Notes under the pieces: generated by a model
What the model was told of the DNA's origin: nothing
Databases searched by the model: none
The model's input: the letters and a program-made list of their open reading frames with translations, nothing else
Assembly: GCA_040954595.2 (NCBI GenBank)
Contig: CM082580.2
Span: forward strand, 1,726,783 to 1,790,782
Origin: Balanoglossus misakiensis
Lineage: Eukaryota; Animalia; Hemichordata
Length of the DNA: 64,000 nucleotides
Direction: 5' to 3'
Part shown: piece by piece, positions 9,701 through 33,720 of the stretch
Numbering within the stretch: the first letter of the stretch is position 1
Layout: each line of letters begins with the position of its first letter
Program-made: the position numbers and the translations under genes

Positions 9701-10990
9701 TTCCACTATACTCTGTAGATCGAGAGATAGTTCTAAAATTTCCATGTTTGCTTCCAAACAGCCTCGTTTATTTACGGAATTCTGTTTTGAGGCGCAGAAC
9801 ACATAGATAGGCATATGTGCATAAGAAAGTTTTCCACTATAGACTCTGTAGATCGAGAGATAGTTCTAAAATGTCCATGGTTGCTTCCAAACACAGCCTC
9901 GTTTGTTTACAAAATTCTGTTGTGATGCGCAGAACACATATATAGGCCTATGCGCATAATAACGTTTTCCACTAGACTCTGTAGATCGACGGATAGTTGT
10001 AAAATTTCCATGGTTGCTTCCAAACAGCCTCGTTTATTTACCGAATTCTGTTGTAAGGCACAGAACACATAGATAGGCCTATGTGCATAAGAAAGTTTTC
10101 CACTATAGACTCTGTAGATCGAGAGATAGTTCTAAAATGTCCATGGTTGCTTCCAAACACAGCCTCGTTTGTTTACAAAATTCTGTTGTGATGCGCAGAA
10201 CACATATATAGGCCTATGCGCATAATAACGTTTTCCACTAGACTCTGTAGATCGACGGATAGTTGTAAAATTTCCATGGTTGCTTCCAAACAGCCTCGTT
10301 TATTTACCGAATTCTGTTGTGAGGCGCAGAACACATAGATAGGCATATGTGCATAAGAAAGTTTTCCACTATAGACTCTGTAGATCGAGAGATAGTTCTA
10401 AAATGTCCATGGTTGCTACCAAACACAGCCTCGTTTGTTTACAAAATTCTGTTGTGATGCGCAGAACACATATATAGGCCTATGCGCATAAGAACGTTTC
10501 CACTAGACTCTGTAGATCGACGGATAGTTGTAAAATTTCCATGGTTGCTTCCAAACAGCCTCGTTTATTTACCGAATTATGTTGTGAGGCGCAGAACACG
10601 TGATAGGCCTATGCGCATTAGAAAGTTTTCCACTAGACTCTGTAGATCGAGAGATAGTTCTAAAATTTCCAAGGTTGCTTCCAAACACAGTCTCGTTTGT
10701 TTACAAAAGTCTGCAGTGATGCGCAGAACACATGATAGGCCTATGCGCATAAGAAACTTTTTCACTGTAGATCGACGGATAGTTCTAAAATTTCCATAGA
10801 CTCTGTAGATCGAGAGATAGTTCTAAAATTTCCATGGTTGCTTCCAAACACAGCCTCGTTTGTTTACAAAATTCTTTTGTGATGCGCAGAACACATAGCT
10901 AGGCCTATGCGCATAAGAAAGTTTTCCACTAGACTCTGTAGATCGACGGATAGTTCTAAAATGTCCATGGTTGATTTCAAACAGCCTTGT
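6779..10990. repeat. ~131-bp satellite, block 1
   Basis: Tandem monomers of 130-135 bp: aacacatagataggcctatgcgcataagaacgttttccactagactctgtagatcgacggatagttctaaaatttccatggttgcttccaaacagcctcgtttatttaccgaattctgttgtgaggcgcag. Confidence 0.97.
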
Positions 10991-12755
10991 TAGGTCCCAT
11001 TGGTATAGGCCTATATACCATGGGACCTTATGGGATGGGTTGCGTCTGTATGTATGTATGGATGGATGGATGTATGGATGTATGGATGTATGGATGTATG
11101 GATGTATGTCCGTCCACATCAAAAACTTGAAAACCGCTGCGCGTATCACCTCAATATTTGGTGTGTAGGTGCAGGCTGGGCTGTAGATGGGAGTTTGTCC
11201 AAACGAAGTTGCCAGGCCCAAAAATATGCAAATTAGCTTGTAAAATGTGAAATTGATCAAAACTCTGTAACTCAACAATTACTGGTCAGATTGCTTTGAA
11301 AATTGATATGTATGTACCTTATGTCAACCTCACACCGACCTGTAAGTGTTAAGTTGATATCATGGATGTTTTATTTTTTATGAATTTTTTAGTCTTTTTA
11401 TTAAATTTATACCTTTACTTATACCTCTATGGTTAAGCTATGTCCACGTCTTATTGTGGAATTCTGGTCTGTGCAATAGTCCTGTACAGTGACTGTCTAT
11501 TGGCCAGTGAGCACAATGGGGCCAAAATAAAAGGCAAATTTTTGGGCTCACCTGTAACACCTGCTTAACACATTAATTATGTGCATACCTAATTCCGGGC
11601 TAATTAATAGGGCTAGAGGTTTCGTTCTTGTGGGACATGGACCAGTATAGGGTCAAAATTTCTTGCCCAAATTTTGGGTGACCTCAGGTGACCTTTGACC
11701 TACTTTTCCATATCTTGGCATCCAGAGCAGGTACAGACTTGGCGTTTGGAGGATTGGCACTAAAATTGAGAAGCCAAAATTGGGGGTCACCTGTGACACC
11801 TGCATATCTCATTAATTATGTGCATACCTAATTCCAGGCTAACCAATAAGGCTATAGGTTTGGTTTTTGTTGAACATGGACCAGTATAGGGTCAAAATTT
11901 CTTGCCCAAATTTTGCATGACCTCAGGTGACCTTTGACCTACTTTTCCATATCTTGGCATCCAGAGCAGGTACAGACTTGGCGTTTGGAGGATTGGCACT
12001 AAAATTGAGAAGCCAAAATTGGGGTCACCTGTGACACCTGCATATCTCATTAATTATGTGCATACCTAATTCCAGGCTAACCAATAAGGCTATAGGTTTG
12101 GTTTTTGTTGAACATGGACCAGTATAGGGTCAAAATTTCTTGCCCAAATTTTGCATGACCTCAGGTGACCTTTGACCTACTTTTCCATATCTTGGCATCC
12201 AGAGCAGGTACAGACTTGGCGTTTGGAGGATTGGCACTAAAATTGAGAAGCCAAAATTGGGGGTCACCTGTGACACCTGCATATCTCATTAATTATGTGC
12301 ATACCTAATTCCAGGCTAACCAATAAGGCTACAGGTTTGGTTTTTGTTGAACATGGACCAGTATAGGGTCAAAATTTCTTACCCAAATTTTGCATGACCT
12401 CAGGTGACCTTTGACCTACTTTTCCATATCTTGGCATCCAGAGCAGGTACAGACTTGGCGTTTGGAGGATTGGCACTAAAATTGAGAAGCCAAAATTGGG
12501 GGTCACCTGTGACACCTGCATATCTCATTAATTATGTGCATACCTAATTCCAGGCTAACCAATAAGGCTATAGGTTTGGTTTTTGTTGAACATGGACCAG
12601 TATAGGGTCAAAATTTCTTGCCCAAATTTTGCATGACCTCAGGTGACCTTTTACCTACTTTTCCATATCTTGGCATCCAGAGCAGATATGCTTATTGCTA
12701 TGTTGCTATGTGCTATGTCCTCAAATGGGACCACAGTGTCCTTGACGCTATTTTT
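10991..12755 (+). mobile_element. Helentron-associated non-autonomous element (HINE/DINE-1-like) inserted in the satellite
   Basis: 5' hairpin aggtcccat(t)ggtata-ggcc-tatataccatgggacct at 10992-11028; (TGTA/TGGA)n microsatellite; internal 238-bp repeats; 3' subterminal IR atgggacc at 12725-12732; short hairpin agtgtc-ctt-gacgct; T-run. Inserted into a T-run of the monomer (gcct[c/t]gtt|tatttaccg) with no clear TSD. Confidence 0.8.
11546..12684. repeat. 238-239-bp tandem repeat inside the HINE (~4.8 copies)
   Basis: cacctgtgacacctgcatatctcattaattatgtgcatacc recurs near 11788, 12026, 12265 and 12504. Confidence 0.93.
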
Positions 12756-15700
12756 TATTTACCGAATTCTGCTGTGATGCGCAGATCACATAGATAGGCC
12801 TATGTGCATAAGAAACTTTTCCACTAGACTCTGTAGATCGACGGATAGTTCTAAAATTTCCATGGTTGCATCCAAACAGCCTCGTTTATTTACCGATTTC
12901 TGTTGTGAGGCGCAGAACACGTGATAGGCCTATGCGCATAAGAAAGTTTTTTACTAGACTCTGCAGATCGACGGATAGTTCTAAAATTTCCATGGTTGCT
13001 TCCAAACACAGCCTCGTTTATTTCCAAATTCTGTTGTAATGCGCAGAACACATAAATAGGCCTATGCGCATAAGAACGTTTTCCACTAGACTCTATAGAT
13101 CGACGGATAGTTCTAAAATTTCCATGGTTGCTTCCAAACACAGCCTCGTTTGTTTACAAAATTCTGCAGTGATGCGCAGAACACATGATAGGCCTATGCG
13201 CATAAGAAACTTTTTCACTGTAGATCGACGGATAGTTCTAAAATTTCCATGGTTGATTCCAAACACAACCTCGTTTGTTTACAAAATTCTGTTGTAATGC
13301 GCAGAACACATAGCTAGGCCTATGCGCATAAGAAAGTTTTCCACTAGACTCTGTAGATCGAGAGATAGTTCTAAAATATACATGGTTGCCTCAAAACACA
13401 GCCTCGTTTGTTTACAAAATTCTGTTGTGATGCGCAGAACACATAGATAGGCCTATGCGCATAAGAACGTTTTCCACTAGACCTTTTAGATCGACGGATA
13501 GTTCTAAAATTTCCATGGTTGTTTCCAAACAGCCTCGTTTATTTACCGATTTCTGTTGTGAGGCTCTGAACACATAGATAGGCCTATGCGCATAAAAAAG
13601 TTTTCCACTAGACGCTGAAGGTCGACGGATAGTTCTAAAATTTCCATGGTTGCTTCCAAACAGCCTCGTTTATTTACCGATTTCTGTTGTGAGGCGCAGA
13701 ACACATGATAGGCCCATGCGCATAAGAAATTTTTCCACTAGACTCTGTAGATCGACGGATAGTTCTAAAATGTCCATGGTTGCTTCCAAACAAAGCCTCG
13801 TTTGTTTACAAAATTCTGTTGTGATGCGCAGAACACATATATAGGCCTATGCGCATATGAACGTTTCCCACTATACTCTGTAGATCGAGAGATAGTTCTA
13901 AAATTTCCATGTTTGCTTCCAAACAGCCTCGTTTATTTACGGAATTCTGTTTTGAGGCGCAGAACACATAGATAGGCATATGTGCATAAGAAAGTTTTCC
14001 ACTATAGACTCTGTAGATCGAGAGATAGTTCTAAAATTTCCATGGTTGCTTCCAAACACAGCCTCGTTTGTTTACAAAATTCTGTTGTGATGCGCAGAAC
14101 ACATATATAGGCCTATGCGCATAAGAACGTTTTCCACTAGACTCTGTAGATCGACGGATAGCTGTAAAATTTCCATGGTTGCTTCCAAACTGCCTCGTTT
14201 ATTTACCGATTTCTGTTGTGAGGCGCAGAACACATGATAGGCCTATGCGCATAAGACATTTTTCCACTAGACTCTGTAGATCGACGGATAGTTCTAAAAT
14301 TTCCATGGTTGCTTCCAAACAGCCTCGTTTATTTACCGAATTCTGTTGTGAGGCGCAGAACACGTAATAGACCTATGCGCATTAGAAAGTTTTCCACAAG
14401 ACTCTGTAGATCGACGGATAGATGTAAAATGTCCACGGTTGCTTCCAAATACAGCCTCGTTTATTTACCGATTTCTGTTGTGATGCGCATAACACATATA
14501 TAGGCCTATGCGCAAAAGAACGTTTTCCACTAGACTCTGTAGATCGACAGATAGCTGTAAAATTTCCATGTTTGCTTCCAAACAGCCTCGTTTATTTACG
14601 GAATTCTGTTGTGAGGCGCAGAACACGTAATAGGCCTATGCGCATTAGAAAGTTTTCCACAGGACTCTGTAGATCGACGGATAGTTGTAAAATGTCCATG
14701 GTTGCTTCCAAATACAGCCTCGTTTATTTACCGATTTCTGTTGTGATGCGCATAACATATATATAGGCCTATGCGCAAAAGAACGTTTTCCACTAGACTC
14801 TGTAGATCGACGGATAGCTGTAAAATTTCCATGTTTGCTTGCAAACAGCCTTGTTTATTTACGGAATTCTGTTTTGAGGCGCAGAACACATGATAGGCCT
14901 ATGCGCATACGACATTTTTCCACTAGACTCTGTAGATCGACGGATAGTTGTAAAATTTCCATGGTTGCTTCCAAACAACCTCGTTTGTTTACCGAATTCT
15001 GTTGTGATGCGCAGAACACATATATAGGCCTATGCGCATAAGAACGTTTTCCACTAGACTCTGTAGATCGACGGATAGTTGTAAAATGTTCATGGTTGCT
15101 TCCAAATACAGCCTCGTTTATTTACCGATTTCTGTTGTGATGCGCATAACACATAGATAGGCCTATGCGCATTATAACGTTTTCCACTAGACTCTGTAGA
15201 TCGACGGATAGTTGTAAAATTTCCATGGTTGCTTCCAAACAGCCTCGTTTATTTACCGAATTCTGTTGTTAGGCGCAGAACACGTTATAGGCCTATGCGC
15301 ATAAGAAAGTTTTCCACCAGACTCTGTAGATCGACGGATTTTTGTAAAATTTCCATGGTTGCTTCCAAACAGCCTCGTTTATTTACCGAATTCTGTTGTT
15401 AGGCGCAGAACACGTTATAGGCCTATGCGCATAAGAAAGTTTTCCACCAGACTCTGTAGATGGACTGATAGTTCTAAAATTTCCATGGTTGCTTCCAAAC
15501 AGCCTCGTTTATTTACCGAATTCTGTTGTGAGGCGCAGAACACATAGATAGGCATATGTGCATAAGAAAGTTTTCCACTATAGACTCTGTAGATCGAGAG
15601 ATAGTTCTAAAATGTCCATGGTTGCTACCAAACACAGCCTCGTTTGTTTACAAAATTCTGTTGTGATGCGCAGAACACATAGATAGGCCTATGCGCATAT

Positions 15701-17477
15701 GAACGTTTTCCACCATACACTGTAGATCGAGAGATAGTTCTAAAACTTCCATGTTTGCTTCCAAACAGCCTCGTTTATTTGCGGAATTCTGTTTTGAGGC
15801 GCAGAACACATAGATAGGCATATGTGAATAAGAAAGTTTTCCACTATAGACTCTGTAGATCGAGAGATAGTTGTAAAATTTCCATGGTTGCTTCCAAACA
15901 GCCTCGTTTATTTACCGATTTCTGTTGTGAGGCGCAGAACACATAGATAGGCCTATGCGCATAAAAAACTTTTCAACTTTAGATCAACGGATAGTTCTAA
16001 AATTTCCATGGTTGTTTCCAAACAGCCTCGTTTATTTACCGAATTCTGTTGTGATGCGTAGAACACATACATATGCCTATGCGCATAAGAAAGTTTTCCA
16101 CTAGACTCCGTAGATCGACGAATAGTTCTAAAATGTCCATGGTTGCTTCCAAACAAAGCCTGGTTTGTTTACAAAATTCTGTTGTGATGCGCAGAACACA
16201 TAGATAGGCCTATGCGCATATGAACGTTTTCCACTATACTCTGTAGATCGAGAGATAGTTCTAAAATTTCCATGTTTGCTTCCAAACAGCCTCGTTTATT
16301 TACGGAATTCTGTTTTGAGGCGCAGAACACATAGATAGGCATATGTGCATAAGAAAGTTTTCCACTATAGACTCTGTAGATCGAGAGATAGTTCTAAAAT
16401 GTCCATGGTTGCTTCCAAACACAGCCTCGTTTGTTTACAAAATTCTGTTGTGATGCGCAGAACACATATATAGGCCTATGCGCATAATAACGTTTTCCAC
16501 TAGACTCTGTAGATCGACGGATAGTTGTAAAATTTCCATGGTTGCTTCCAAACAGCCTCGTTTATTTACCGAATTCTGTTGTAAGGCACAGAACACATAG
16601 ATAGGCCTATGTGCATAAGAAAGTTTTCCACTATAGACTCTGTAGATCGAGAGATAGTTCTAAAATGTCCATGGTTGCTTCCAAACACAGCCTCGTTTGT
16701 TTACAAAATTCTGTTGTGATGCGCATAACACATAGATAGGCCTATGCGCATAATAACGTTTTCCACTAGACTCTGTAGATCGACGGATAGTTGTAAAATT
16801 TCCATGGTTGCTTCCAAACAGCCTCGTTTATTTATCGATTTCTGTTGTGAGGCGCAGAACACATGATATGCCTATGCGCATAAGACATTTTTCCACCAGA
16901 CTCTGTAGATCGACGGATAGTTGTAAAATTTCCATGATTGCTTCCAAACAGCCTCGTTTATTTACCGATTTCTGTTGTGATGCGCATAACACATAGATAG
17001 GCCTATGCGCATAAGAACGTTTTCCACTAGACTCTGTAGATCGACGGATAGTTCTAAAATTTCCATGGTTGCTTCCAAACAGCCTCGTTTATTTACCGAT
17101 TTCTGTTGTGAGGCGCAGAACACATGATAGGCCTATGTGCATAATAAAGTTTTCCACTAGACTGTGTAGATCGAGAGATAGTTCTAAAATTTCCATGGTT
17201 GCTTCCAAACACAGCCTCGTTTATTTACCGATTTCTGCTGTGATGCGCATAACACATAGATAGGCCTATGCGCATAAGAAAGTTTTCCACTAGACTCTGT
17301 AGATCGACGGATAGTTCTAAAATGTCCATGGTTGCTTCCAAACAAAGCCTCGTTTGTTTACAAAATTCTGTTGTGATGTGCATAACACATGATAGGGATA
17401 TGTGCATAAGAAAGTTTTCCACTATAGACTCTGTAGATCGAGAGATAGTTCTAAAATTTCCATGGTTGCTTCCAAAC
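12756..17477. repeat. ~131-bp satellite, block 2
   Basis: The same monomer resumes in register after the HINE and stops at ...gcttccaaac. Confidence 0.97.
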
Positions 17478-17769
17478 CTATAATATTTAAAGCCTCATAA
17501 CTCCGCTGTAGAATATGCCTATTGTTATAGGAGTGGGTCCGGGTTTTATGTTATGTTATGCGAAACTCCCTGCTTTATGGATGAACAACTTTTCCTATTT
17601 CCCACCCAATCCTTCAATACCCATACACACCCACTCCTACACCCATAATATATATGAAAGCACGTGTCAATTTTAAAATATGAACTTTATTCTTGGTACG
17701 ATTATGTACAGAAATCAAGCCCCATACATCTGTAAATTAGGTTATTGTGCCATTAAGGAGCGGACTGGT

Positions 17770-19025
17770 TTAGAATGCCATAGTGAAGTCTGTTAGATCA
17801 TTCGCCTGTTCGTAGTTTCGCGTCAGGATCTCTCCTGCATCAGTCACCTCTTTTAACTTCTGGGCTGGTCCTTGGGCCGCTGACACAGAAGATAGTTTGG
17901 TGTAATGATTGGCTGTATCTTCTGAACGCCAACCTATGTGACGCATAAGCTCACTCAACAACACCCCCGCCAAGGATAATGTGATCGCACATGCGCTTCT
18001 GAGACTGTGTGGTGTTTCCCCTCTATCCATGTTTAGCTCCTGTAGGTACAATTTGAGGCGACTGTACGCTGTTTGGGATGATAGAGGGCGTTGCTCGACT
18101 TCACCGCTCGGGGTTGTTGGCCGAAATAGATTACCTCTGCACAAGTTTACCCCAATCCTTTCCGCCAATGTGATGTATTGTTCTACAGCGTGTACTGGGC
18201 AAATATCCACATCTTTACATCGTTTAAGGGCAAACATATTTGAAGATGCGCCTCTCAAAGTTTTTCCATAGGTGTGATTGAAAATGAAGCCGCAGTTGTC
18301 TGGAAAACGTAGAATTTCTTGTGTTTTTACATGCCCCAGATCACCCGCCCTGTCGCCGGAAAATGCAAGTAGTTTAAAGAACGCTAAATCCCTGGCCAGT
18401 ATGTAAATTTGGGCGAGCGATCTTGCTACGTCTACCTTACTTAATACGTGGTTGAATATACGTTTCATTTTTTCTAGAAACAGTGGTTTAGCTTGTCTAG
18501 GGGTAATATGTGCTCTGGCTTGTTCTTCCGATATTTTTTTACGTACCTAAGTACCATCGTGGATTTTGCCGGGTTTGCATTATTCGACACTGAGTTGAAA
18601 CAGACGCCGAGTTTTGAAACCATGTTTTTTATTGTACTTGATTTCAGTCGTCTGGGGCAATGACACGGCATTGTGCCTGTCCTTCCATAAAAGTCACAAG
18701 TATCAACGTGTATTTGCGTTTTAGCGTCTTTATCCTTGTATATTAGGAATCTGACGACATCCTCAGGTTTTGCCGTTATGAAATTGGTAGTTGGTGATGT
18801 AGCGGCTAGAAACTGCTCGAACTGCTGTATGAGTCTGTCCTGTATTTCGTATAGTGATCTTTGACCGAGAACCTCATGCATGCGTCGGTTTATAGCCTGG
18901 ATATCCGGCGGACTACCCTTCTTGTGACCCGTGTGTGGGGTTGTGAGAGAGACTAGGGTAGTAGAACATACATCACATTCAGTATTGGTGGTCTTGCTTG
19001 TAGTGCCACATATATAGCATATCAT
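17770..19025 (-). CDS. Tyrosine recombinase with N-terminal Zn-ribbon and ALOG-like domain; split by a 1-bp loss in an A7 run at 18534-18540
   Basis: Catalytic-type motifs GDRAGDL, GKT, HSLR, HIGWRSEDTANHY. N-terminal CxxC...CxxC, then KTQIHxxxCxFYG...CxCPRRL...NPA. Adding one A joins the two ORFs as YVKKISEEQARAHITPRQAKPLFLEKMKR. Confidence 0.9.
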
Positions 19026-19140
19026 CTGCTGGGAGACAAAGGAAATACTATTGTAGTTTAGATGCGATATTGAGCCTAATATTGTCACATATGGATGCCA
19101 TTGTGTCGAAATGTATTTGTACATTATAATTACTGGGAAT

Positions 19141-21320
19141 TTAAGTGCTGGGTTTGAAAATCACTGCATATATTCGCAGCGAAGTAGAAATTCATTGTAA
19201 CCATTTCGCGATGGCGCTTGAATGACCCCTTCTTCTCCCTTTTTACCAATTAGATTCGTGTGTGTTGCTTTTTGACGTATCAGTGGCCAGAACGGCTCCA
19301 AGAAGCGCCCTCTTGGGACTATGACTGTGGCTGTATACCGTTTATCTACGATGTGTCGGAGGACCGCATGCACCAATGGAAATGGCGGGTAGATATATAA
19401 GGTTTCCTGCCTAGAAAATGTGTGCTGGAAAAAGTTGACACCTTCACTTCTGGTTTGCTGAAATGGGGAGACGAACCGTGTTAGTTTTGCATTTGAGCTG
19501 TTTGCCATTGCATCAACGTGGTGTGGGCCAAATTTCTCTTCCAGTAATTGCCACGCACGTGGAGACAGACTTGAATTCTTTAGTGAGATATCGCGAGATG
19601 CTCCATCAGCTTCGTTTTCTGCGGATCTGACATGTATTAGCTTCAGTGTGACGTTGTTGTCCACGCAAAAACGGAATATTTTCCTGATAATTTCGTTGAG
19701 GGCGTTCGATTTGGTGCCTGGGACTCCATTTGACCATACCTGGACCAGTGTCATAGAATCCACGTGTACATCGAGCCGCGTGCTCTTAACAGATCCCTGG
19801 AATGCGATCAGTGCTCGAGACAGTGCTTCCGCCTCCTTCAGGACGATTGGGTTTTGTCTCCATACTGTCTCCCACATATCACTGACAGTGGTATCCGTGG
19901 CTTCTGTGTCCGATCTATGTAATACAGCACCCCATTTGTAAGAACTGGCGTCTGTAGACATGGTTACCCGGACATGGTTTTCAGTTGGCCAACGGAATGT
20001 CCTTGGGGTTGTGACCACTTGTACCCACTCTTGCAATTCTTCTCTGAGTGGGCCTTTGATTGGCACCATGTACTTTGCCTGTTTATTGGCGGCAGCAATT
20101 GAGTGTGCCATCTGACGGATATATAGACGAGCACACGGGATAGCAAGGGAGAACGAGACACACTTTCCCATGATCCTTTGTAGGGATGATAATGGAGCGA
20201 TACGACCGTCCAATACTTGGTTAACTAGCGTTATAAAAGTATGCCTCTTCTCGTCGGGTATTGAGAATGCGTTGGCTACTGTGTCGACGGTCATACCCAG
20301 CATAATTAGAGACTGTGTTGGTCTGAGGACGCTCTTATCTAAAGATATAAAATATCCCGCATCTATACATAACTTGATTAATATATAGGCCGCAGCTTCA
20401 GTGAGTTGGTACCTGGTCCATTCGTTGTCGGTAGTTGCTTGTGGTAAGCATAGTGCGCCCACATGTCTGTCGTCGATGTACTGTATACATGGTACGCCAA
20501 GAGACCTCGCATAGCTGGTAATACAGTATCCCACGTTCTGGTATATGAAGGCGGATAATTTCCATCCAAACGGTAGAGTGTTGTTCACATACCAGGATCC
20601 CGCCCACTGGAAACCAACGTAACGTCTTTCGTCCTCTGCCAGTAGGATGTGATCGTATCCGCTCTTGTCATCGCATTTTATTTGATAATCACACGATTGC
20701 AGATATTTTGAAACTTCTATCAGCTTATCCAATTTAAAAGGCATGTCCTTCATCCAAAGGTTGAGAAATCTCATATCGATACATAGACGAGGCTTTTGGG
20801 GTTCAATTGTGATGGGCATAACTATATGAGGGGGAGGGGCACACCCTACTCTGCCCCACACCGAAATGGCTCCAGACTTGATTCTATCTTGCAGGGTATG
20901 AGCAATAAATTCTCCGAATTTACTACAATTCGGGTTGTTGTAAAATAACTTGTGAGGGGGTGTATCGTGATCGTATTCGACTCCTTTAAATTGTCCCGAA
21001 AAGTGACGAGTGTAATCCGAGATTTTGACCTTCTCCCGCAACCAGGACATAACTAAGTCTTTGTTGTCTAGCCCATTTGTGATGCAATCCCATTCTTGAA
21101 GATGTTGATGGACTTCACCAGCCTTAAATTCAGCTGCATTTCTATAATTTAACTCTTGGGGGCGGGACAGGGTTCTTCCTAAGGCGACCTCTTCGACAGC
21201 TGGATTCCCTCCCATCACTTCCTGTCTGGGGGCGCCCTCCCATGATACCCATGAATACGAGACACGTCCACCACTTGCTTGATGAACGGGGTAGTTCAGT
21301 TCCCACTGTGGGGTCAAAAA
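19141..21320 (-). CDS. Pol: reverse transcriptase + RNase H + Dam-like adenine methyltransferase domain
   Basis: RT: KPRLCIDMRFLN, DDKSGYDHI, LPFGW, YIDD. RNase H: TDAS...KEAEAL...VDS...NEADGASR. MTase: VDAMA...N...YIYPPF. The track ORF ends at 19161; a 1-bp shift near 19172 would extend it to ...CELYAVIFKPST* (19141). Confidence 0.93.
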
Positions 21321-21356
21321 CTGAAACAAAAGGAAAACAGCAAAGCTTAGGACACT

Positions 21357-21388
<32 letters not shown>

Positions 21389-21599
21389 GACCCCCCAGAC
21401 AGGACCCTGCGAAGGCAGGTTGCTTTTAAAGGGATAGGGCTGTTATTGTTAGCCCCCCTGTCCGAAGGGAAAGGAAAATAAACTACACAAACACTGAGAT
21501 TACAGAGTCATATTATTTATTTTATTTTATTTATTTATTTTTTTTTTGCAATATTTCAATGCATCATCGGAAAAGTTATACGATTATCAGTACAATACA

Positions 21600-22130
21600 T
21601 TATTTTTTGTCGGGGCAGTCCCTCGCAATGTGCCCCAACTTCGCACATACAAAGCATTTAATTCCGGATTGCCCAGCCGAATTTCTTGGTTGCTCTCTTC
21701 TATAGTAGGGAGAATACGGTGTGCGGGTATATGATGTACGAAGTGGATAGGGCATATATCGTCGCGATTCATATTGAGAGAACTGATTAGATGAGCCAGA
21801 GTGTTTCATAAACTTGTACACTTTTGAAGCTATTTCTTCCTCTTCTTTATTTCCCAATAATAGAATAATTAATCTCCCCGCATCTTCCTCGAAATCGGTA
21901 GATTCAAACTGGGAGAGCACCGCTCGAAAACGCTGCAATTTTGGATGTGCGGTGGCTGTCGCTCTGTCGACCAGTGCCCTCAAAGCATTAAGTAGTTGGG
22001 TTCGGGATACGACTGCTGGATTGTGGGCCATATCCATTAGCTTTTGTAAAGCCTCTTCGACAGATGCTGTCCCAGCATTCTTTTCCAATAAGAGTAGTTT
22101 CTGTTTCAGCTCCAATAGCTGTTCCTTCAC
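21600..22130 (-). CDS. Gag-like protein, exon 2 (coiled coil + CCHC zinc knuckle)
   Basis: C-terminal CFVCAKLGHIARDC. No in-frame ATG at the 5' end; the ORF starts exactly after tttgtattgtAG (22132-22131). Confidence 0.85.
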   Translation of the reverse strand: MKEQLLELKQKLLLLEKNAGTASVEEALQKLMDMAHNPAVVSRTQLLNALRALVDRATATAHPKLQRFRAVLSQFESTDFEEDAGRLIILLLGNKEEEEIASKVYKFMKHSGSSNQFSQYESRRYMPYPLRTSYTRTPYSPYYRREQPRNSAGQSGIKCFVCAKLGHIARDCPDKK

Positions 22131-22357
22131 CTACAATACAAACACCGTTTTGTAATGAGTACATCACAGTAACACTAACGCCCATGTACAAAGGTTAACA
22201 TTATTTTGAATCAATTCTCCTTCCTTTCAGAGCCTCGTACCTTCATTTCATTATGAGCCTCATTGCTTCATTATTGTTATTTTGTATACAAATACATTTT
22301 TTTAAAACAATCTCGTTGCTAGGTTTCATAATCAAAGCCTCGCTGCTTTAAATTCAT

Positions 22358-25056
22358 AACCGAGCTTCACTGCTCTATTTCAATATCCGAGCTTCACTGC
22401 TCTAATTCAATAACCGAGCTTCACTGCTCTATTTCAATAACCGAGCTCCACTGCTCTATTTCAATAACCGAGCTTCACTGCTCTATTTCAATAACCGAGC
22501 TCCACTGCTCTAATTCAATAACCGAGCTTCACTGCTCTATTTCAATAACCGAGCTCCACTGCTCTATTTCAATAACCGAGCTTCACTGCTCTATTTCAAT
22601 AACCGAGCTTCACTGCTCTATTTCAATAACCGAGCTCCACTGCTCTATTTCAATAACCGAGCTTCACTGCTCTATTTCAATAACCGAGCTTCACTGCTCT
22701 ATTTCAATAACCGAGCTCCACTGCTCTATTTCAATAACCGAGCTCCACTGCTCTATTTCAATAACCGAGCTCCACTGCTCTAATTCAATAACCGAGCTTC
22801 ACTGCTCTATTTCAATAACCGAGCTCCACTGCTCTATTTCAATAACCGAGCTTCACTGCTCTATTTCAATAACCGAGCTCCACTGCTCTAATTCAATAAC
22901 CGAGCTTCACTGCTCTATTTCAATAACCGAGCTCCACTGCTCTAATTCAATAACCGAGCTTCACTGCTCTATTTCAATAACCGAGCTCCACTGCTCTATT
23001 TCAATAACCGAGCTTCACTGCTCTATTTCAATAACCGAGCCCCACTGCTCTAATTCAATAACCGAGCTTCACTGCTCTATTTCAATAACCGAGCTCCACT
23101 GCTCTATTTCAATAACCGAGCTTCACTGCTCTATTTCAATAACCGAGCTTCACTGCTCTATTTCAATAACCGAGCTCCACTGCTCTAATTCAATAACCGA
23201 GCTCCACAGCTCTAATTGAATAACCGAGCTTCACTGCTCTATTTCAATAACCGAGCTCCACTGCTCTATTTCAATAACCGAGCTTCACTGCTCTATTTCA
23301 ATAACCGAGCTCCACTGCTCTAATTCAATAACCGAGCTTCACTGCTCTATTTCAATAACCGAGCTCCACTGCTCTAATTCAATAACCGAGCTTCACTGCT
23401 CTATTTCAATAACCGAGCTCCACTGCTCTAATTCAATAACCGAGCTTCACTGCTCTATTTCAATAACCGAGCTCCACTGCTCTATTTCAATAACCGAGCT
23501 TCACTGCTCTATTTCAATAACCGAGCTCCACTGCTCTAATTCAATAACCGAGCTTCACTGCTCTATTTCAATAACCGAGCTCCACTGCTCTATTTCAATA
23601 ACCGAGTTTCACTGCTCTATTTCAATAACCGAGCTCCACTGCTCTAATTCAATAACCGAGCTTCACTGCTCTATTTCAATAACCGAGCTCCACTGCTCTA
23701 ATTCAATAACCGAGCTTCACTGCTCTATTTCAATAACCGAGCTCCACTGCTCTAATTCAATAACCGAGCTTCACTGCTCTATTTCAATAACCGAGCTCCA
23801 CTGCTCTAATTCAATAACCGAGCTTCACTGCTCTATTTCAATAACCGAGCTCCACTGCTCTATTTCAATAACCGAGCTTCACTGCTCTAATTCAATAACC
23901 GAGCTTCACTGCTCTATTTCAATAACCGAGCTCCACTGCTCTATTTCAATAACCGAGCTCCACTGCTCTATTTCAATAACCGAGCTCCACTGCTCTAATT
24001 CAATAACCGAGCTCCACTGCTCTATTTCAATAACCGAGCTCCACTGCTCTAATTCAATAACCGAGCTTCACTGCTCTATTTCAATAACCGAGCTTCACTG
24101 CTCTATTTCAATAACCGAGCTCCACTGCTCTAATTCAATAACCGAGCTTCACTGCTCTATTTCAATAACCGAGCTCCACTGCTCTATTTCAATAACCGAG
24201 CTTCACTGCTCTATTTCAATAACCGAGCTCCACTGCTCTATTTCAATAACCGAGCTTCACTGCTCTATTTCAATAACCGAGCTCCACTGCTCTAATTCAA
24301 TAACCGAGCTCCACTGCTCTATTTCAATAACCGAGCTTCACTGCTCTATTTCAATAACCGAGCTCCACGGCTCTATTTCAATAACCGAGCTTCACTGCTC
24401 TATTTCAATAACCGAGCTCCACTGCTCTAATTCAATAACCGAGCTTCACTGCTCTATTTCAATAACCGAGCTCCACTGCTCTAATTCAATAACCGAGCTT
24501 CACTGCTCTATTTCAATAACCGAGCTTCACTGCTCTATTTCAATAACCAAGCTCCACTGCTCTATTTCAATAACCGAGCTCCACTGCTCTATTTCAATAA
24601 CCGTGCTTCACTGCTCTATTTCAATAACCGAGCTCCACTGCTCTAATTCAATAACCGAGCTTCACTGCTCTATTTCAATAACCGAGCTCCACGGCTCTAA
24701 TTCAATAACCGAGCTCCACTGCTCTATTTCAATAACCGAGCTTCACTGCTCTATTTCAATAACCAAGCTCCACTGCTCTAATTCAATAACCGAGCTTCAC
24801 TGCTCTATTTCAATAACCGAGCTCCACTGCTCTATTTCAATAACCGAGCTTCACTGCTCTATTTCAATAACCGAGCTCCACTGCTCTAATTCAATAACCG
24901 AGCTTCACTGCTCTATTTCAATAACCGAGCTCCACTGCTCTATCTCAATAACCGAGCTTCACTGCTCTATTTCGATAACCGAGCTTCACTGCTCTATTTC
25001 AATAACCGAGCTTCACTGCTCTATTTCAATAACCGAGCCCCAATGCTCTATTTCAT
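22358..25056. repeat. 27-bp minisatellite (ccgagctYcactgctctaWttcaataa), ~100 copies, inside the retroelement
   Basis: Read directly; highly homogeneous with two main dimorphic positions; degenerate units at both edges. Confidence 0.98.
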
Positions 25057-25327
25057 AAAACTGGGCCGCATTGTTCTATCGAAAATGTACAGGCACCTGG
25101 CAGTGGGGCCATGTCACGGTTTTCCACTCCATGCATATTCAATGAGGATACAAACATTCACATTGGGGGCAGGTGGCATGCAGGAATTCAACAGGTGTAC
25201 GCTGTAGTATAATGGGCGTCGAGAAAACCCGTTAACAAAGTAATGGGGCATGCCGAATGAAACGTACAAATCTAGACATCGGAATGAACAATAAATAAGG
25301 TGTACACGAGAAAGGATTTATATGTAC

Positions 25328-25576
25328 CTCATTATCTGCGGTCGTTTGAGCGTTCCCTTGACGACTCGGACCCGGAACTTGAATATCTGGTCGGCTCGTC
25401 GCCCTTTGCTGAGTTTGCTGAGTTGGCTGAGATTGGGAGCCGGCATTACTACTTTGGCTGGTAGAAGGCCTGTGTGCAGCTAGGAACGCTGCAACAGCTT
25501 GGGTTGCACTCGGCTGTGCCTCTTCTGTGCCCGGTGGTGGTGGTGGCGGGCTTACCCGTACAGGTGGTTGAGCCAT
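25328..25576 (-). CDS. Predicted leader exon of the retroelement (83 aa, Pro/Gln/Ser-rich)
   Basis: ATG at 25576, 147 bp inside the element end. Low-complexity MAQPPVRVSPPPPPPG...TTADNE ends at GAG|GTACAT (phase 0), after which the composition turns intron-like. Confidence 0.65.
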
Positions 25577-25723
25577 CTTCTCTGCTATATGCTGCCTCCG
25601 TGGTTAAGGAATGGTACTGAGCCCATGTGCGGATATTCGCTGACTTTTGTACGGGTTCTCATGAATATTCATAATAAATTAGCATATGCGGATATATATC
25701 GCGTAGTGATGCGGCTTTAAATA

Positions 25724-28700
25724 ACTGCCTCGTTTGTTTACAAAATTCTGTTGTGACGCGCAGAACACATAGATAGGCCTATGCGCATAAGAACGTTTTC
25801 CACTAGACTCTGTAGATCGACGGATAGTTGTAAAATTTCCATGGTTGCTTCCAAACACAGCCTCGTTTATATACCGAATTCTGTTGTGATGCGCAGAACA
25901 CATAGATAGGCCTATGCGCATATGAACGTTTTCTACTAGACTCTGTAGATCGAGAGATAGTTCTAAAATTTCCATGTTTGCTTCCAAACAGCCTCGTTTA
26001 TTTACGGAATTCTGTTTTGAGGCGCAGAACACATAGATAGGCATATGTGCATAAGAAAGTTTTCCACTATAGACTCTGTAGATCGACGGATAGTTCTAAA
26101 ATTTCCATGGTTGCTTCCAAACACAGCCTCGTTTGTTTACAAAATTCTGTTGTGATGCGCAGAACACATATATAGGCCTATGCGCATAAGAACGTTTTCC
26201 ACTAGACTCTGTAGATCGACGGGTAGTTGTAAAATTTCCATGGTTGCTTCCAAACAGCCTCGTTTATTTACCGATTTCTGTTGTGAGGCGCAGAACACAT
26301 GATAGGCCTATGCGCATAAGACATTTTTCCACTAGACTCTGTAGATCGACGGATAGTTCTAAAATTTCCATGGTTGCTTCCAAACAGCCTCATTTATTTA
26401 CCGAATTCTGTTGTGAGGCACAGAACACGTAATAGGCCTATGCGCATAAGAAAGTTTTCCACCAGACTCTGTAGATCGACGGATAGTTGTAAAATTTCCA
26501 TGGTTGCTTCCAAATACAGCCTCGTTTATTTACCGATTTCTGTTGTGATGCGCATAACACATAAATAGGCCTATGCGCATAAGAACGTTTTCCACTAGAC
26601 TCTGTAGATCGACGGATAGTTCTAAAATTTCCATGGTTGCTTCCAAACAGCCTCGTTTATTTACCGAATTCTGTTGTGAGGCGCAAAACACGTAATAGGC
26701 CTATGCGCATAAGAAACTTTTCAACTTTAGATCGACGGATAGTTCTAAAATTTCCATGGTTGCTTCAAAACAGTCTCGTGTATTTACAGAATTCTGTTGG
26801 GAGGCACAGAACACATAGATAGTCCTAAGTGCATAATAAAGTTTTACACTAGACTCTGTAGATCGAGAGATAGTTCTAAAATTTCCATGGTTGCTTCCAA
26901 ACACAGCCTCGTTTGTTTACAAAATTCTGTTGTGATGCGCAGAACACATATATAGGCCTGTGCGCATAAGAACGTTTTCCACGAGACTCTGTAGATCGAC
27001 GGGCAGTTGTAAAATTTCCATGGTTGCTTCCAAACAGCCTCGTTTATTTACCGATTTCTGTTGTGAGGCGCAGAACACATGATAGGCCTATGCGCATAAG
27101 AAAGTTTTCCACCAGACTCTGTAGATCGACGGATAGTTCTAAAATTTCCATGGTTGCTTCCAAACAGCCTCGTTTATTTACCGAATTCTGTTGTGAGGCG
27201 CAAAACACGTAATAGGCCTATGCGCATAAGAAACTTTTCAACTTTAGATCGACGGATAGTTCTAAAATTTCCATGGTTGCTTCAAAACAGTCTCGTGTAT
27301 TTACAGAATTCTGTTGGGAGGCACAGAACACATAGATAGTCCTAAGTGCATAATAAAGTTTTACACTAGACTCTGTAGATCGAGAGATAGTTCTAAAATT
27401 TCCATGGTTGCTTCCAAACACAGCCTCGTTTGTTTACAAAATTCTGTTGTGATGCGCAGAACACATATATAGGCCTATGCGCATAAGAACGTTTTCCACT
27501 AGACTCTGTAGATCGACGGGCAGTTGTAAAATGTCCATGGTTGCTTCCAAACAGCCTCGTTTATTTACCGATTTCTGTTGTGAGGCGCAGAACACATGAT
27601 AGGCCTATACGCATAAGAAATTTTTCAACTAGACTCTGTAGATCGACGGATAGTTGTAAAATTTCCATGGTTGCTTCCAAACAGCCTCGTTTATTTACCG
27701 AATTATGTTGTGAGGCGCAGAACACGTAATAGGCCTATGCGCATAAGAACGTTTTCCACTAGACTCTGTAGATCGACGGATAGTTCTAAAATTTCCATGG
27801 TTGCTTCCAAACAGCCTCGTTTATTTACCGAATTCTGTTGTGAGGCGCAAAACACGTAATAGGCCTATGCGCATAAGAAACTTTTCAACTTTAGATCGAC
27901 GGATAGTTCTAAAATTTCCATGGTTGCTCCAAAACAGTCTCGTGTATTTACGGAATTCTGTTGGGAGGCACAGAACACATAGATAGTCCTAAGTGCATAA
28001 TAAAGTTTTACACTAGACTCTGTAGATCGAGAGATAGTTCTAAAATTTCCATGGTTGCTTCCAAACACAGCCTCGTTTGTTTACAAAATTCTGTTGTGAT
28101 GCGCAGAACACATATATAGGCCTATGCGCATAAGAACGTTTTCCACTAGACTCTGTAGATCGACGGGCAGTTGTAAAATGTCCATGGTTGCTTCCAAACA
28201 GCCTCGTTTATTTACCGATTTCTGTTGTGAGGCGCAGAACACATGATAGGCCTATACGCATAAGAAATTTTTCAACTAGACTCTGTAGATCGACGGATAG
28301 TTGTAAAATTTCCATGGTTGCTTCCAAACAGCCTCGTTTATTTACCGAATTATGTTGTGAGGCGCAGAACACGTAATAGGCCTATGCGCATAAGAACGTT
28401 TTCCACTAGACTCTGTAGATCGACGGATAGTTCTAAAATTTCCATGGTTGCTTCCAAACAGCCTCGTTTATTTACCGAATTCTGTTGTGAGGCGCAAAAC
28501 ACGTAATAGGCCTATGCGCATAAGAAACTTTTCAACTTTAGATCGACGGATAGTTCTAAAATTTCCATGGTTGCTCCAAAACAGTCTCGTGTATTTACGG
28601 AATTCTGTTGGGAGGCACAGAACACATAGATAGTCCTAAGTGCTTAATAAAGTTTTACACTAGACTCTGTAGATCGAGAGATAGTTCTAAAATTTCCATG

Positions 28701-31700
28701 GTTCTTTCCAAACACAGCCTCGTTTGTTTACAAAATTCTGTTATGATGCGCTGAACACATACATATGCCTATGCGCATATGAAAGTTTCCCACTAGACTC
28801 TGTAGATCGAGAGATAGTTCTAAAATTTCCATGTTTGCTTCCAAACAGCCTCGTTTATTTACGGAATTCTGTTTTGAGGCGCAGAACACATAGATAGGCA
28901 TATGTGCATAAGAAAGTTTTCCACTATAGACTCTGTAGATCGAGAGATAGTTCTAAAATTTCCATGGTTCTTTCCAAACACAGCCTCGTTCATCTACAAA
29001 ATTCAGTTGTGATGCGCTGAACACATACATATGCCTATGCGCATAAGAAAGTTTCCCACTAGACTCTGTAGATCGACGGATAGTTCTAAAATTTCCATGA
29101 TTGCTTCCAAACACATCCCCGATTGTTTACAAAATTCTGTTGTGATGCGCAGAACACATAGATAGGCCTATGCGCATAAGAACGTTTTCCACTAGACTCT
29201 GTAGATCGAGAGATAGTTCTAAAATTTCCATGGTTGCTTCCAAACACATCCTCGTTTGTTTACAAAATTCTGTTGTGATGCGCAGAACACATAGATAGGC
29301 CTATGCGCATTGGAAAGTTTTCCACTAGACTCCGTAGATCGACGGATAGTTCTAAAATTTCCATGGTTGCTTCCAAACAGCCTCGTTTATTTACCGAATT
29401 CTGTTGTTAGGCGCAGAACACATAATAGGCCTATGCGCATAAGAAAGTTTTCCACCAGACTCTGTAGATCGACGGATAGTTGCAAAATTCCCATGGTTGT
29501 TTCCAAACAGCCTCGTTTATTTACCGAATTCTGTTGTGATGCGTAGAACACATACATATGCCTTTTGCGCATAAGAATTTTTCCACTAGACTTCGTAGAT
29601 GGACGGATAGTTCTAAAATTTCCATGGTTGCTTCCAAACAAAGCCTCGTTTGTTTACAAAATTCTATTGTGATGCGCAGAACACATAGAGAGGCCTATGC
29701 GCATAAGAACGTTTTCCACTAGACTATGTATATCGACGGATAGTTCTAAAATTTCCATGTTTGCTTCCAAACACATCCTCGTTAGTTTACAAAATTCTGT
29801 TGTGATGCGCAGAACACATAGATAGGCCTATGCGCATTGGAAAATTTTCCACTAGACTCCGTAGATCGACGGATAGTTCTAAAATTTCCATGGTTGCTTC
29901 CAAACACATCCTCGTTTGTTTACAAAATTCTGCTGTGATGCGCAGAACACATAGATAGGCCTATGCGCATATGAACGTTTTCCACTATACTCTGTAGATC
30001 GACGGATAGTTGTAAAATTTCCATGGTTGCTTCCAAACAGCCTCGTTTATTTACGGAATTCTGTTTTGAGGCGCAGAACACATAGATAGGCATCTGTGCA
30101 TAAGAAAGTTTTCCACTATAGACTCTGTAGATCGAGAGATAGTTCTAAAATTTCCATGGTTGCTTCCAAACACAGCCTCGTTTGTTTACAGAATTCTGTT
30201 GTGATGCGCAGAACACATATATAGGCCTATGCGCATAAGAACGTTTTCCACTAGACTCTGTAGATCGACGGATAGTTGTAAAATTTCCATGGTTGCTTCC
30301 AAACAGCCTCGTTTATTTACAGATTTCTGTTGTGAGGCGCAGAACACATGATAGGCCTATGCGCATAAGACATGTTTCCACTAGACTCTGTAGATCGACG
30401 GATAGTTCTAAAATTTCCATGGTTGCTTCCAAACAGCCTCGTTTATTTACCGAATTCTGTTGTTAGGCGCAGAACACGTAATAGGCCTATGCGCATAAGA
30501 AAGTTTACCACCAGACTCTGTAGATCGACGGATAGTTCTAAAATTTCCATGGTTGTTTCCAAACAGCCTCGTTTATTTACCGAATTCTGTTGTGATGCGT
30601 AGAACACATACATATGCCTATGCGCATAAGAATTTTTTCCACTAGACTCCGTAGATCGACGGATAGTTCTAAAATTTCCATGGTTGCTTCCAAACAAAGC
30701 GTCGTTTGTTTACAAAATTCTGTTGTGATGCGCAGAACACATAGAGAGGCCTATGCGCATAAGAACGTTTTCCACTAGACTATGTATATCGACGGATAGT
30801 TCTAAAATTTCCATGTTTGCTTCCAAACACATCCTCGTTTGTTTACAAAATTCTGTTGTGATGCGCAGAACACATAGATAGGCCTATGCGCATTGGAAAA
30901 TTTTCCACTAGACTCCGTAGATCGACGGATAGTTCTAAAATTTCCATGGTTGCTTCCAAACACATCCTCGTTTGTTTACAAAATTCTGCTGTGATGCGCA
31001 GAACACATAGATAGGCCTATGCGCATATGAACGTTTTCCACTATACTCTGTAGATCGACGGATAGTTGTAAAATTTCCATGGTTGCTTCCAAACAGCCTC
31101 GTTTATTTACGGAATTCTGTTTTGAGGCGCAGAACACATAGATAGGCATCTGTGCATAAGAAAGTTTTCCACTATAGACTCTGTAGATCGAGAGATAGTT
31201 CTAAAATTTCCATGGTTGCTTCCAAACACAGCCTCGTTTGTTTACAGAATTCTGTTGTGATGCGCAGAACACATATATAGGCCTAAACGCATAAGAACGT
31301 TTTCCACTAGACTCTGTAGATCGACGGATAGTTGTAAAATTTCCATGGTTGCTTCCAAACAGCCTCGTTTATTTACAGATTTCTGTTGTGAGGCGCAGAA
31401 CACATGATAGGCCTATGCGCATAAGACATTTTTCCACTAGACTCTGTAGATCGACGGATAGTTCTAAAATTTCCATGGTTGCTTCCAAACAGCCTCGTTT
31501 ATTTACCGAATTCTGTTGTTAGGCGCAGAACACGTAATAGGCCTATGCGCATAAGAAAGTTTTCCACCAGTCTCTGTAGATCGACGGATAGTTCTAAAAT
31601 TTCCATGGTTGTTTCCAAACAGCCTCGTTTATTTACCGAATTCTGTTGTGATGCGTAGAACACATACATATGCCTATGCGCATAAGAATTTTTTCCACTA

Positions 31701-33720
31701 GACTCCGTAGATCGACGGATAGTTCTAAAATTTCCATGGTTGCTTCCAAACAAAGCGTCGTTTGTTTACAAAATTCTGTTGTGATGCGCAGAACACATAG
31801 AGAGGCCTATGCGCATAAGAACGTTTTCCACTAGACTCTGTATATCGACGGATAGTTGTAAAATTTCCATGTTTGCTTCCAAACAGCCTCGTTTATTTAC
31901 GGAATTCTGTTTTGAGGCGCAGAACACATAGATAGGCATCTGTGCATAAGCAAGTTTTCCACTAGACTCTATAGATCGAGAGATAGTTCTAAAATTTCCA
32001 TGGTTGCTTCCAAACACAGCCTCGTTTGTTTACAAAATTCTGTTGTGATGCGCAGAACACATATATAGGCCTATGCGCATAACAACGTTTTCCACTAGAC
32101 TCTGTAGATCGACGTATAGTTGTAAAATTTCCATGGTTGCTTCCAAACAGCCTCGTTTATTTACCGATTTCTGTTGTGAGGCGCAGAACACATGATAGGC
32201 CTATGCGCATAAGACATTTTTCCACTAGACTCTGTAGATCGACGGATAGTTCTAAAATTTCCATGGTTGCTTCCAAACAGCCTCGTTTATTTACCGAATT
32301 CTGTTGTTAGGCGCAGAACACGTAATAGGCCTATGCGCATAAGAAAGTTTTCCACCAGACTCTGTAGATCGACGGATAGTTCTAAAATTTCCATGGTTGC
32401 TTCCAAACAGCCTCGTTTATTTACCGAATTCTGTTGTGAGGCGCAGAACACGTAATAGGCCTATGCGCATAAGAAAGTTTTCCACCAGACTCTGTAGATC
32501 GACGGATAGTTCTAAAATTTCCATGGTTGTTTCCAAACAGCCTCGTTTATTTACCGAATTCTGTTGTGATGCGTAGAACACATACATATGCCTATGCGCA
32601 TAAGAATTTTTTCCACTAGACTCCGTAGATCGACGGATAGTTCTAAAATTTCCATGGTTGCTTCCAAACAAAGCCTCGTTTGTTTACAAAATTCTGTTGT
32701 GATGCGCAGAACACATAGAGAGGCCTATGCGCATAAGAACGTTTTCCACTAGACTCTGTATATCGACGGATAGTTGTAAAATTTCCATGGTTGCTTCCAA
32801 ACACATCCTCGTTTGTTTACAAAATTCTGTTGTGATGCGCAGAACACATAGATAGGCCTATGCGCATTGGAAAGTTTTCCACTAGACTCCGTAGATCGAC
32901 GGATAGTTCTAAAATTTCCATGGTTGCTTCCAAACACATCCTCGTTTGTTTACAAAATTCTGTTGTGATGCGCAGAACACATAGATAGGCCTATGTGCAT
33001 AAGAAAGTTTTCCACAAGACTCTGTAGATCGCGAGATAGTTCTAAAATTTCCATGATTGCTTCCAGACACAGCCTCGTTTGTTTACAAAATTACGTTGTG
33101 AAGCGCAGAACACATAGATAGGCCTATGCGCATAAGAACGTTTTCCACTAGACTCTGTAGATCGACGGATAGTTCTAAAATTTCCATGGTTGCTTCGAAA
33201 CAAAGCCTTGTTTGTTTACAAAATTCTGTTGTGAAGCGCAGAACACATAGATAGGCCTATGCGCATAAGAACGTTTTCCACTTGACTTTGTAGATCGACG
33301 GATAGTTCTAAAATTTCCATGGTTGCTTCGAAACAAAGCCTTGTTTGTTTACAAAATTATGTTGTGATGTACAGAACACATGATAGGCCAATGCGCATAA
33401 GAAACTTTTCCACTGTAGATGGACGGATACTTCTAAAATGTCCATGGTTGCTTCCAAACAGCCTCGTTTATTTACCGAATTCTGTTGTGATGCGTAGAAC
33501 ACATAGATAAGCCTATGCGCATAAGAAAGTTTTCCACTAGACTCTTTAGATCGACAGATAGTTCTAAAATTCCCATGGTTGCTTCCAAACACTACCTCGT
33601 TTGTTTACCGAATTCTGTTGTGATGCGCAGAACACATAGATAGGCCTATGTGCATAAGAAAGTTTTCCACTAGCCTCTGTAGATCGACGGATAGTTCTAA
33701 AATTTCCGTGGTTGCTTCCA
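25724..33720. repeat. ~131-bp satellite, block 3
   Basis: The monomer resumes in register after the retroelement and ends at gttgcttcca. Confidence 0.97.

Follow-up and report, generated by a model that had tools for sequence, protein, structure and literature searches.

A coding leader predicted to be alternatively spliced onto gag, pol and recombinase cassettes in an ALOG-type retrotransposon of Balanoglossus misakiensis

A 64,000-nucleotide stretch of DNA from the hemichordate Balanoglossus misakiensis (assembly GCA_040954595.2, contig CM082580.2, positions 1,726,783 to 1,790,782), referred to here as the window, carries on its minus strand a retrotransposon with a tyrosine recombinase (YR) gene. 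The gag and pol open reading frames (ORFs) of this element lack a start codon at their 5' ends, and the question that the locus raises is how they come to be translated. It is proposed, with a probability put at about 0.8, that three proteins would be made by alternative splicing of one 5' coding leader onto acceptors that open gag, pol and YR, a reading that rests on signals in the DNA and on their retention in related elements. The features on which the proposal draws are listed below in window coordinates, a stroke within a motif marking the predicted exon boundary.

25328..25576, minus strand: coding part of the leader exon, 83 codons, rich in P, Q, A and S, ending at a phase-0 donor, GAG/GTACAT
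25550..25558, minus strand: alternative phase-0 donor following codon 7, which scores higher than the one at the leader end (8.8 versus 5.4; G of GT at 25555)
22131..25327, minus strand: predicted intron 1, 3197 nt, containing a tandem array
22356..25055, no strand assigned: the tandem array within intron 1, 27-bp unit (TRF period 54, 50 copies)
21600..22130, minus strand: gag cassette, 176 aa, directly after a TAG acceptor, with a C-terminal CCHC knuckle (PF00098, E 4.8e-6)
21516..21540, minus strand: three AATAAA hexamers past the gag stop, a possible gag poly(A) signal, the family-wide test of which was unspecific
19161..21320, minus strand: pol cassette, 719 aa, with reverse transcriptase (RT), RNase H and a Dam-like methylase, behind a CAG acceptor with a long pyrimidine tract
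18474..19028, minus strand: 5' part of the YR cassette, with a Cys-rich ribbon and ALOG domain (PF04852), behind a tandem CAG-CAG acceptor at 19028/19025
17770..18546, minus strand: 3' part of the YR cassette, the tyrosine recombinase catalytic domain, in a different frame

The leader ATG lies at 25576, and its frame runs for 249 nt to 25328, where the GAG/GTACAT donor (25328/25327) stands in phase 0, as the first-pass annotation of this DNA had it. The phase-0 acceptors that the same annotation placed at the openings of gag (22130), pol (21320) and YR (19028/19025) are likewise present at those positions on the minus strand. When the leader was joined to each of these acceptors by script, the frames stayed open for 176 codons in gag, 719 in pol and 184 or 183 in YR (from 19028 and 19025, respectively). 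The first in-frame methionine is residue 32 in gag and residue 36 in pol, in agreement with the claim that neither ORF has a 5' ATG, while the non-coding spacers that had been described between the ORFs measure 279 nt from the gag stop to the pol acceptor and 132 nt from the pol stop to the YR acceptor. A crude pyrimidine-tract score was applied to all distinct AG contexts of the element, 336 in number; it puts the pol acceptor in first place, and the two YR acceptors come third and fourth. Taken for the window alone, three matching phases amount to a chance of 1 in 27, and the pattern is suggestive. The length of 83 residues given for the leader is itself predicted, because an alternative donor exists after 7 codons, and the leader sequence matched no Pfam family. 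Tandem repeats are frequent in intron 1, both in the window and upstream of gag in four other loci (L005, L031, L067 and L079).

The retention of donor, acceptors and phase was then examined across related elements. Among named pol proteins, the nearest belong to hemichordates (55% and 52%) and to amphioxus. Loci were collected with an alignment of 80 pol sequences as the query, and the sample comprised 80 of 382 confirmed metagenome loci together with 9 genome-contig loci. At a threshold of 75% pol identity these 89 loci fall into 53 families. No relatives came from scans of viral contigs; loci L081-L089 are eukaryotic retrotransposon contigs within bacterial metagenome-assembled genome records, and are likely to be host contamination. 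For each ORF, all AGs within a set interval upstream of a conserved anchor were scored blind to phase, with one locus taken per family. The copy in the window was excluded, loci short of upstream DNA or of the anchor were left unscored, and two loci (L026 and L054) in which the knuckle pattern matched the wrong frame were left out of the gag test.

The best acceptor proved to be in phase 0 in 31 of 38 families for pol (27 of which are also open to the anchor; p 1.6e-7), in 14 of 17 for gag (14 open; p 0.0024) and in 11 of 14 for YR (10 open; p 0.0038), where the p-values are taken against the local share of phase-0 AGs and, the families being related, are a guide only. Decoy windows were in phase 0 in 25 of 107 cases inside pol and in 12 of 38 cases on the antisense strand, and the median acceptor score of 11.8 compares with 7.8 and 6.65 for the decoys. 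Phase 0 was found throughout in 4 of the 5 loci (3 of 4 families) that could be scored for all three ORFs, and the phase-0 families are scattered across the entire pol tree, many relatives carrying intact ORFs in the same splice-cassette layout. The families compared thus keep the donor, the acceptors and their phase, a clearly positive outcome, and, as judged from these signals, the comparative data put the phase pattern far beyond chance. A fixed phase is needed only if translation starts upstream of the junction, and this constitutes the main argument for a coding leader.

Leaders were sought in the relatives by composition, as ATG frames rich in P, A, V, E and Q upstream of gag. Among the leaders found in this manner the best donor is in phase 0 in 10 of 13 families (p 0.022 versus the base rate), a count that omits two further loci without any donor, and the leader composition shifts sharply at the donor site. 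A second type of leader, of about 100 residues and with a conserved helical domain, occurs in other lineages (L042:3771-4070, and also L039, L085, L086, L080, L037, L045, L065 and L034). Here the best donor is in phase 0 in 7 of 8 loci, in windows that were set after the frames had been seen, and none was found in L042. The L042 domain was modelled confidently (predicted local distance difference test score, pLDDT, 91); with E values up to 0.001 accepted, its fold matched nothing among PDB structures or viral folds, and its sequence gave no match in Pfam or among PDB sequences. In L034, L037 and L045 the helical leader is itself split by a phase-matched intron, the acceptor in L037 being the second best.

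On the proposed scheme, one transcript would start at the left end of the element, and the leader donor would be spliced to one of three acceptors, that of gag, of pol or of YR. All three junctions would be used from the single leader, and the three resulting proteins would begin with the same N-terminal sequence. The start codon would come from the leader, which might also provide a common tag for targeting or assembly, and the choice of acceptor would set the Gag:Pol:YR ratio. Unspliced RNA would presumably be exported and packaged as the genome, then reverse-transcribed and integrated by YR.

Database proteins provide some product-level evidence for such joins. The amphioxus RefSeq model P0032, labelled 'isoform X1', consists of a Q/P-rich leader joined to pol, while in P0151 the helical leader domain is joined directly to YR, P0151 being one of 3 among the best 150 YR matches that carry the helical leader at E <1e-4. 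In addition, the sequence missing from P0126 and P0129 is exactly an 87-nt GT..AG segment whose 5' end is the leader donor of locus L007 (L007:1685-1771). As read from these proteins, this shows the leader donor of the L007 family to be used, though not with the three cassettes.

A number of observations weigh against the proposal, and are gathered here. Splicing in this copy is a prediction from the DNA, and the splice scores are crude, with weights that were in part the author's own. The leader donor is weak, agreeing with the consensus at 6 of 9 positions and bettered by 10 of the 488 GT sites in the element, and the gag acceptor lies outside the top 25 of the 336 AG contexts and another AG in the interval scored for it does better (5.2 versus 4.8). 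The window leader resembles that of P0032 in composition, with no sequence similarity between them. The deletion in P0126 and P0129 ends at a proximal acceptor, past which only a short junk frame follows; a proximal acceptor like that of L007 is not evident in all families. A search with the P0032 leader returned 2 proteins from 127 candidates, neither a leader-gag nor a clean leader-YR protein, and 10 proteins found with the L007 leader included none joined to gag, pol or YR. The P/A/V-type leader was absent from all of the best 150 YR matches, and among the 120 pol matches listed a leader was present only in P0032 and in the multi-ORF model P0043. Across these database leader searches, no leader turned up on more than one ORF. 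Moreover, P0032 is a RefSeq gene model, and P0151, P0126 and P0129 are database entries.

The alternative that survives these points best is that splicing is real, with the upstream exon serving some ORFs only (gag and pol, for instance), or with each ORF taking its own small exon or internal ATG, such that any shared tag is short or incidental. The donor after codon 7 of the leader is stronger than that at its end, and an ATG-AAG/GT mini-exon lies 110 nt upstream of the gag acceptor. In the YR of this copy an ATG stands immediately past the 19025 acceptor. P0001 and P0002, the RefSeq gene models of the nearest two relatives, start at an internal methionine and carry no leader, which is a further point against the shared leader. 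So too is the presence of an in-frame ATG ahead of the anchor in 7 of 14 intact families for gag, 14 of 29 for pol and 4 of 11 for YR. It had been foreseen that relatives with ATGs of their own at these positions would speak against the spliced leader; about half of the intact families do have some in-frame ATG, but at no fixed position, the codon ranging from 1 to 34. Internal starts would, moreover, free the acceptor phase, yet phase 0 prevails in all three ORFs, and neither the break in leader composition at the donor nor the conserved folded leader domain accords with an incidental exon. This alternative is accordingly rated as unlikely.

Considerably less probable is a single multi-exon mRNA in which leader, gag, pol and YR are spliced into a polyprotein, or into a Gag-Pol fusion, with spacers and stop codons removed. 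Database models that join ORFs do exist (P0043, leader-gag-pol; P0079 and P0133, pol-YR); however, they omit conserved stretches, as the products of gene predictors do. The gene order is shuffled in two relatives (L034 and L083). Indeed, within the last 30 codons the best donor is in phase 0 in just 5 of 29 families for gag and 9 of 35 for pol (window included), with median scores of 3.6 and 4.0, and the spliced polyprotein was rejected since the 3' ends of gag and pol lack phase-0 donors. With this rival failing, and with donor, acceptors and phase conserved, the virus-like programme of three spliced mRNAs suggested by the first-pass annotation is supported.

The persistence of the introns could also be explained by a DNA route, in which the recombinase excises and integrates the element in the manner of Cryptons. 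The introns do persist, including the phase-matched introns inside the leaders of L034, L037 and L045, and the earlier suggestion that intron-less copies be sought was followed among the relatives, where 3 of 114 anchors were flagged, all false on reading, leaving no true intron-less leader-ORF fusion. A palindromic end junction with a short spacer might also be cited for this route, since we take it to resemble a tyrosine-recombinase site; the B/A end junction forms arms round a spacer of about 6 nt at L071:5653-5735, L081:6986-7019, near 9717 in L085 and at L029:1405-1477. Against this, RT-RNase H and the gag knuckle are intact across families, and the exact loss of the 87-nt intron in P0126 and P0129 is what reverse transcription would be expected to produce if the contigs encoding these two proteins are DNA. 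All 5 complete relatives checked have split direct repeats of the form A1..B1-A2..B2, and because of these an RNA route is favoured. The DNA route is thus very improbable. The first-pass annotation had offered either an unspliced genomic RNA or a DNA-level route as the means by which introns are kept; the former is favoured, and the latter is not needed. Finally, T-rich spacers might carry splice-like motifs by chance, as the weak donor and gag acceptor of this copy could suggest; the probability of this reading is close to negligible in view of a phase bias seen in three ORFs over tens of families with flat decoys.

Further information on the proposed splicing of a shared leader comes from relatives in which the cassettes are reordered or extended. 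The gene order is YR-gag-pol in L034 (2755-8377) and L083 (399-5126), and in both the gag acceptor lies less than 40 nt past the YR stop, which leaves no room for a promoter or leader of gag's own. In L034 the second leader exon runs straight into YR, and a phase-0 AAG/GTACAT donor is retained at the leader end (score 6.3, with two neighbours at 6.4 and 6.5); this leader-YR read-through may have arisen when an intron was lost long ago and a functional donor stayed behind. A fourth ORF, encoding a GDSL/SGNH hydrolase, is present past YR in L039 (8571-9230), directly behind a phase-0 TAG acceptor, and a GDSL/SGNH hydrolase domain is fused to the end of pol in L085, with similar pol extensions in L082, L083, L086 and L046. 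A separate poly(A) site for each cassette seems plausible. The enrichment of AATAAA in gag-pol spacers (14 of 26, versus 3.6 expected from dinucleotide shuffles) was nevertheless set aside as support, a further point against the proposal, since control hexamers are nearly as frequent (AAATAA in 12 of 26 and antisense TTTATT in 11 of 26).

It may tentatively be envisaged, at slightly less than even odds, that these elements form a marine-invertebrate clade in which one leader, folded in some lineages and disordered in others, is spliced as a hub onto any number of interchangeable terminal cassettes (gag, pol and YR, with a hydrolase at times), the leader acting as a common N-terminal assembly tag and the intron-bearing genomic RNA being protected as in retroviruses. 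If so, genes could be added, reordered or read through without new promoters, and cassettes fronted by an acceptor would already be suited to being taken up by hosts as terminal exons.

The means by which YR retrotransposons express pol and recombinase downstream of gag have been little studied, and Goodwin and Poulter are said to have mentioned, in 2004, spliceosomal introns in some of them. If the proposed scheme is true, the whole coding programme hangs on spliceosomal introns that must survive reverse transcription, which points to an RNA export or packaging step akin to that of retroviruses, and may account for elements that have been read as fragmented, for mis-joins by gene predictors, for gene reordering and for host capture. 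A leader that gag, pol and YR share through splicing was not described anywhere in the literature searched, from which subscription papers were mostly missing, nor is such a scheme present in the available portions of PMC3266345, PMC3783388, PMC4157794, PMC6681497, PMC7192593, PMC5633606, PMC9341512, PMC9940879 and PMC13465315. The comparisons that follow refer likewise to the available portions of the sources cited.

The closest description is that of the ALOG DIRS1-type retroposons (Iyer and Aravind 2012, PMC3537659), which share with the element a Gag Zn knuckle, RT-RNase H, a methylase-like domain and a YR with N-terminal Zn ribbon and ALOG domain, and whose hosts are marine invertebrates including amphioxus and corals. 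The main text of that paper, in the portion available, makes no mention of introns or splicing and treats the metazoan copies as fragmented and inactive, whereas many of the relatives collected here retain intact ORFs organised as splice cassettes. PAT-like elements of the echinoderm form of Pat1, reported from echinoderms, molluscs and cnidarians (PMC4157794), are alike in their methylase, gag zinc finger and A1-B1-A2-B2 split direct repeats; splicing-based expression is not described in the available text, and the window copy differs in lacking the internal repeat. DIRS-1 of Dictyostelium and DIRS1-like elements (PMC7192593, PMC3266345, PMC5633606) also combine gag, RT, RNase H and methyltransferase with YR and move by way of cDNA, but differ in having long inverted repeats and an internal complementary region; the pol and YR ORFs overlap in half of 28 DIRS1-like elements (PMC3266345), and an engineered intron was lost during DIRS-1 transposition (PMC7192593).

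With respect to expression, the element would work like foamy viruses and plant Copia elements without being either. In foamy viruses (PMC3705302) Pol is made from a spliced mRNA apart from Gag, as is predicted here from signals and from the P0032 model, but the foamy Pol mRNA is without Gag sequence, whereas here a coding leader would be common to all products; the element, moreover, has its integrase, a YR, on a separate cassette and lacks env, protease and long terminal repeats (LTRs). In plant Ty1/Copia elements (PMC5580714) alternative splicing and early termination set protein ratios while full-length RNA is kept, although there the spliced RNA is for GAG only and Pol comes from a polyprotein, with neither a shared leader nor three cassettes in the text available. 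For the LAP2alpha exons of TMPO and for ZNF451, the colonising DIRS1-like gag has been inferred to carry a splice acceptor and poly(A) signal (PMC4495291), which, by contrast, concerns host co-option of another gag family and not a splicing programme of the element itself.

The identity, ends and state of the window copy can be given more briefly. The features concerned are the following.

17478..25723, minus strand: whole element, placed within a satellite array with a unit of 130-133 bp
25701..25723, minus strand: left terminal arm, 23 nt, a 20/23 inverted match to the right arm
17484..17506, minus strand: right terminal arm, partner of the left

On its domain content the element is classed as an ALOG-type tyrosine-recombinase retrotransposon, with gag, an RT-RNase H-methylase pol and an ALOG-YR. 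The RT expected of the order DIRS is present in pol above the cut-off (PF00078), with an RNase H match below it (E 0.0015), and a tyrosine recombinase (PF00589, E 3.7e-11), its gene split by a frame break, takes the place of a DDE integrase. The ALOG domain (PF04852, E 1.1e-18) is N-terminal to the YR catalytic domain, as in ALOG-type DIRS elements, and the knuckle of gag (PF00098) agrees with the Pat1-like zinc finger. The methylase-like end of pol (residues 591-659) is a weak PF05869 match below cut-off (E 0.017) in a region that aligns with relatives across at least 90% of pol; this Dam-like region does not fit Ngaro elements, which have no methylase domain. Neither do the ends resemble those of DIRS1-like elements, with their long inverted terminal repeats and internal complementary region (ICR), in that only the 23-nt arms are present, no left ICR was found, and a 19-nt right ICR match was also reached by 8 of 300 shuffles. 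The arms themselves align with a score of 37, equalled in none of 300 shuffles. No LTRs, env, protease or DDE integrase were found among the ORFs and Pfam matches of the element. Its relatives look PAT-like, as judged by features, the pol tree having carried no reference Pat1 elements.

The YR frame is broken near 18540, in an A run, where the same stretch is continuous in 14 aligned relatives, and no internal copy of the element's own 5' end (the A2/B1 repeat) was found in the window copy. Because of these two defects the copy is likely to be dead or non-autonomous.

Satellite flanks the element directly, ending at 17477 and starting again at 25723, and arrays of the 130-133 bp unit occupy 6781-10797, 12754-17477 and 25723-33720 of the window, the element sitting inside an array. 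A 239-bp repeat occurs at 11544-12685 and 60953-62291. Elsewhere on the minus strand, and by eye only, 43860-45609 presumably holds the broken RT tail of a non-LTR retrotransposon-like sequence (HPSE..HVLNGC motif), 42573-43817 is taken to be a host exon similar to a COR/death-domain protein, and 40427-40945 is a short ORF.

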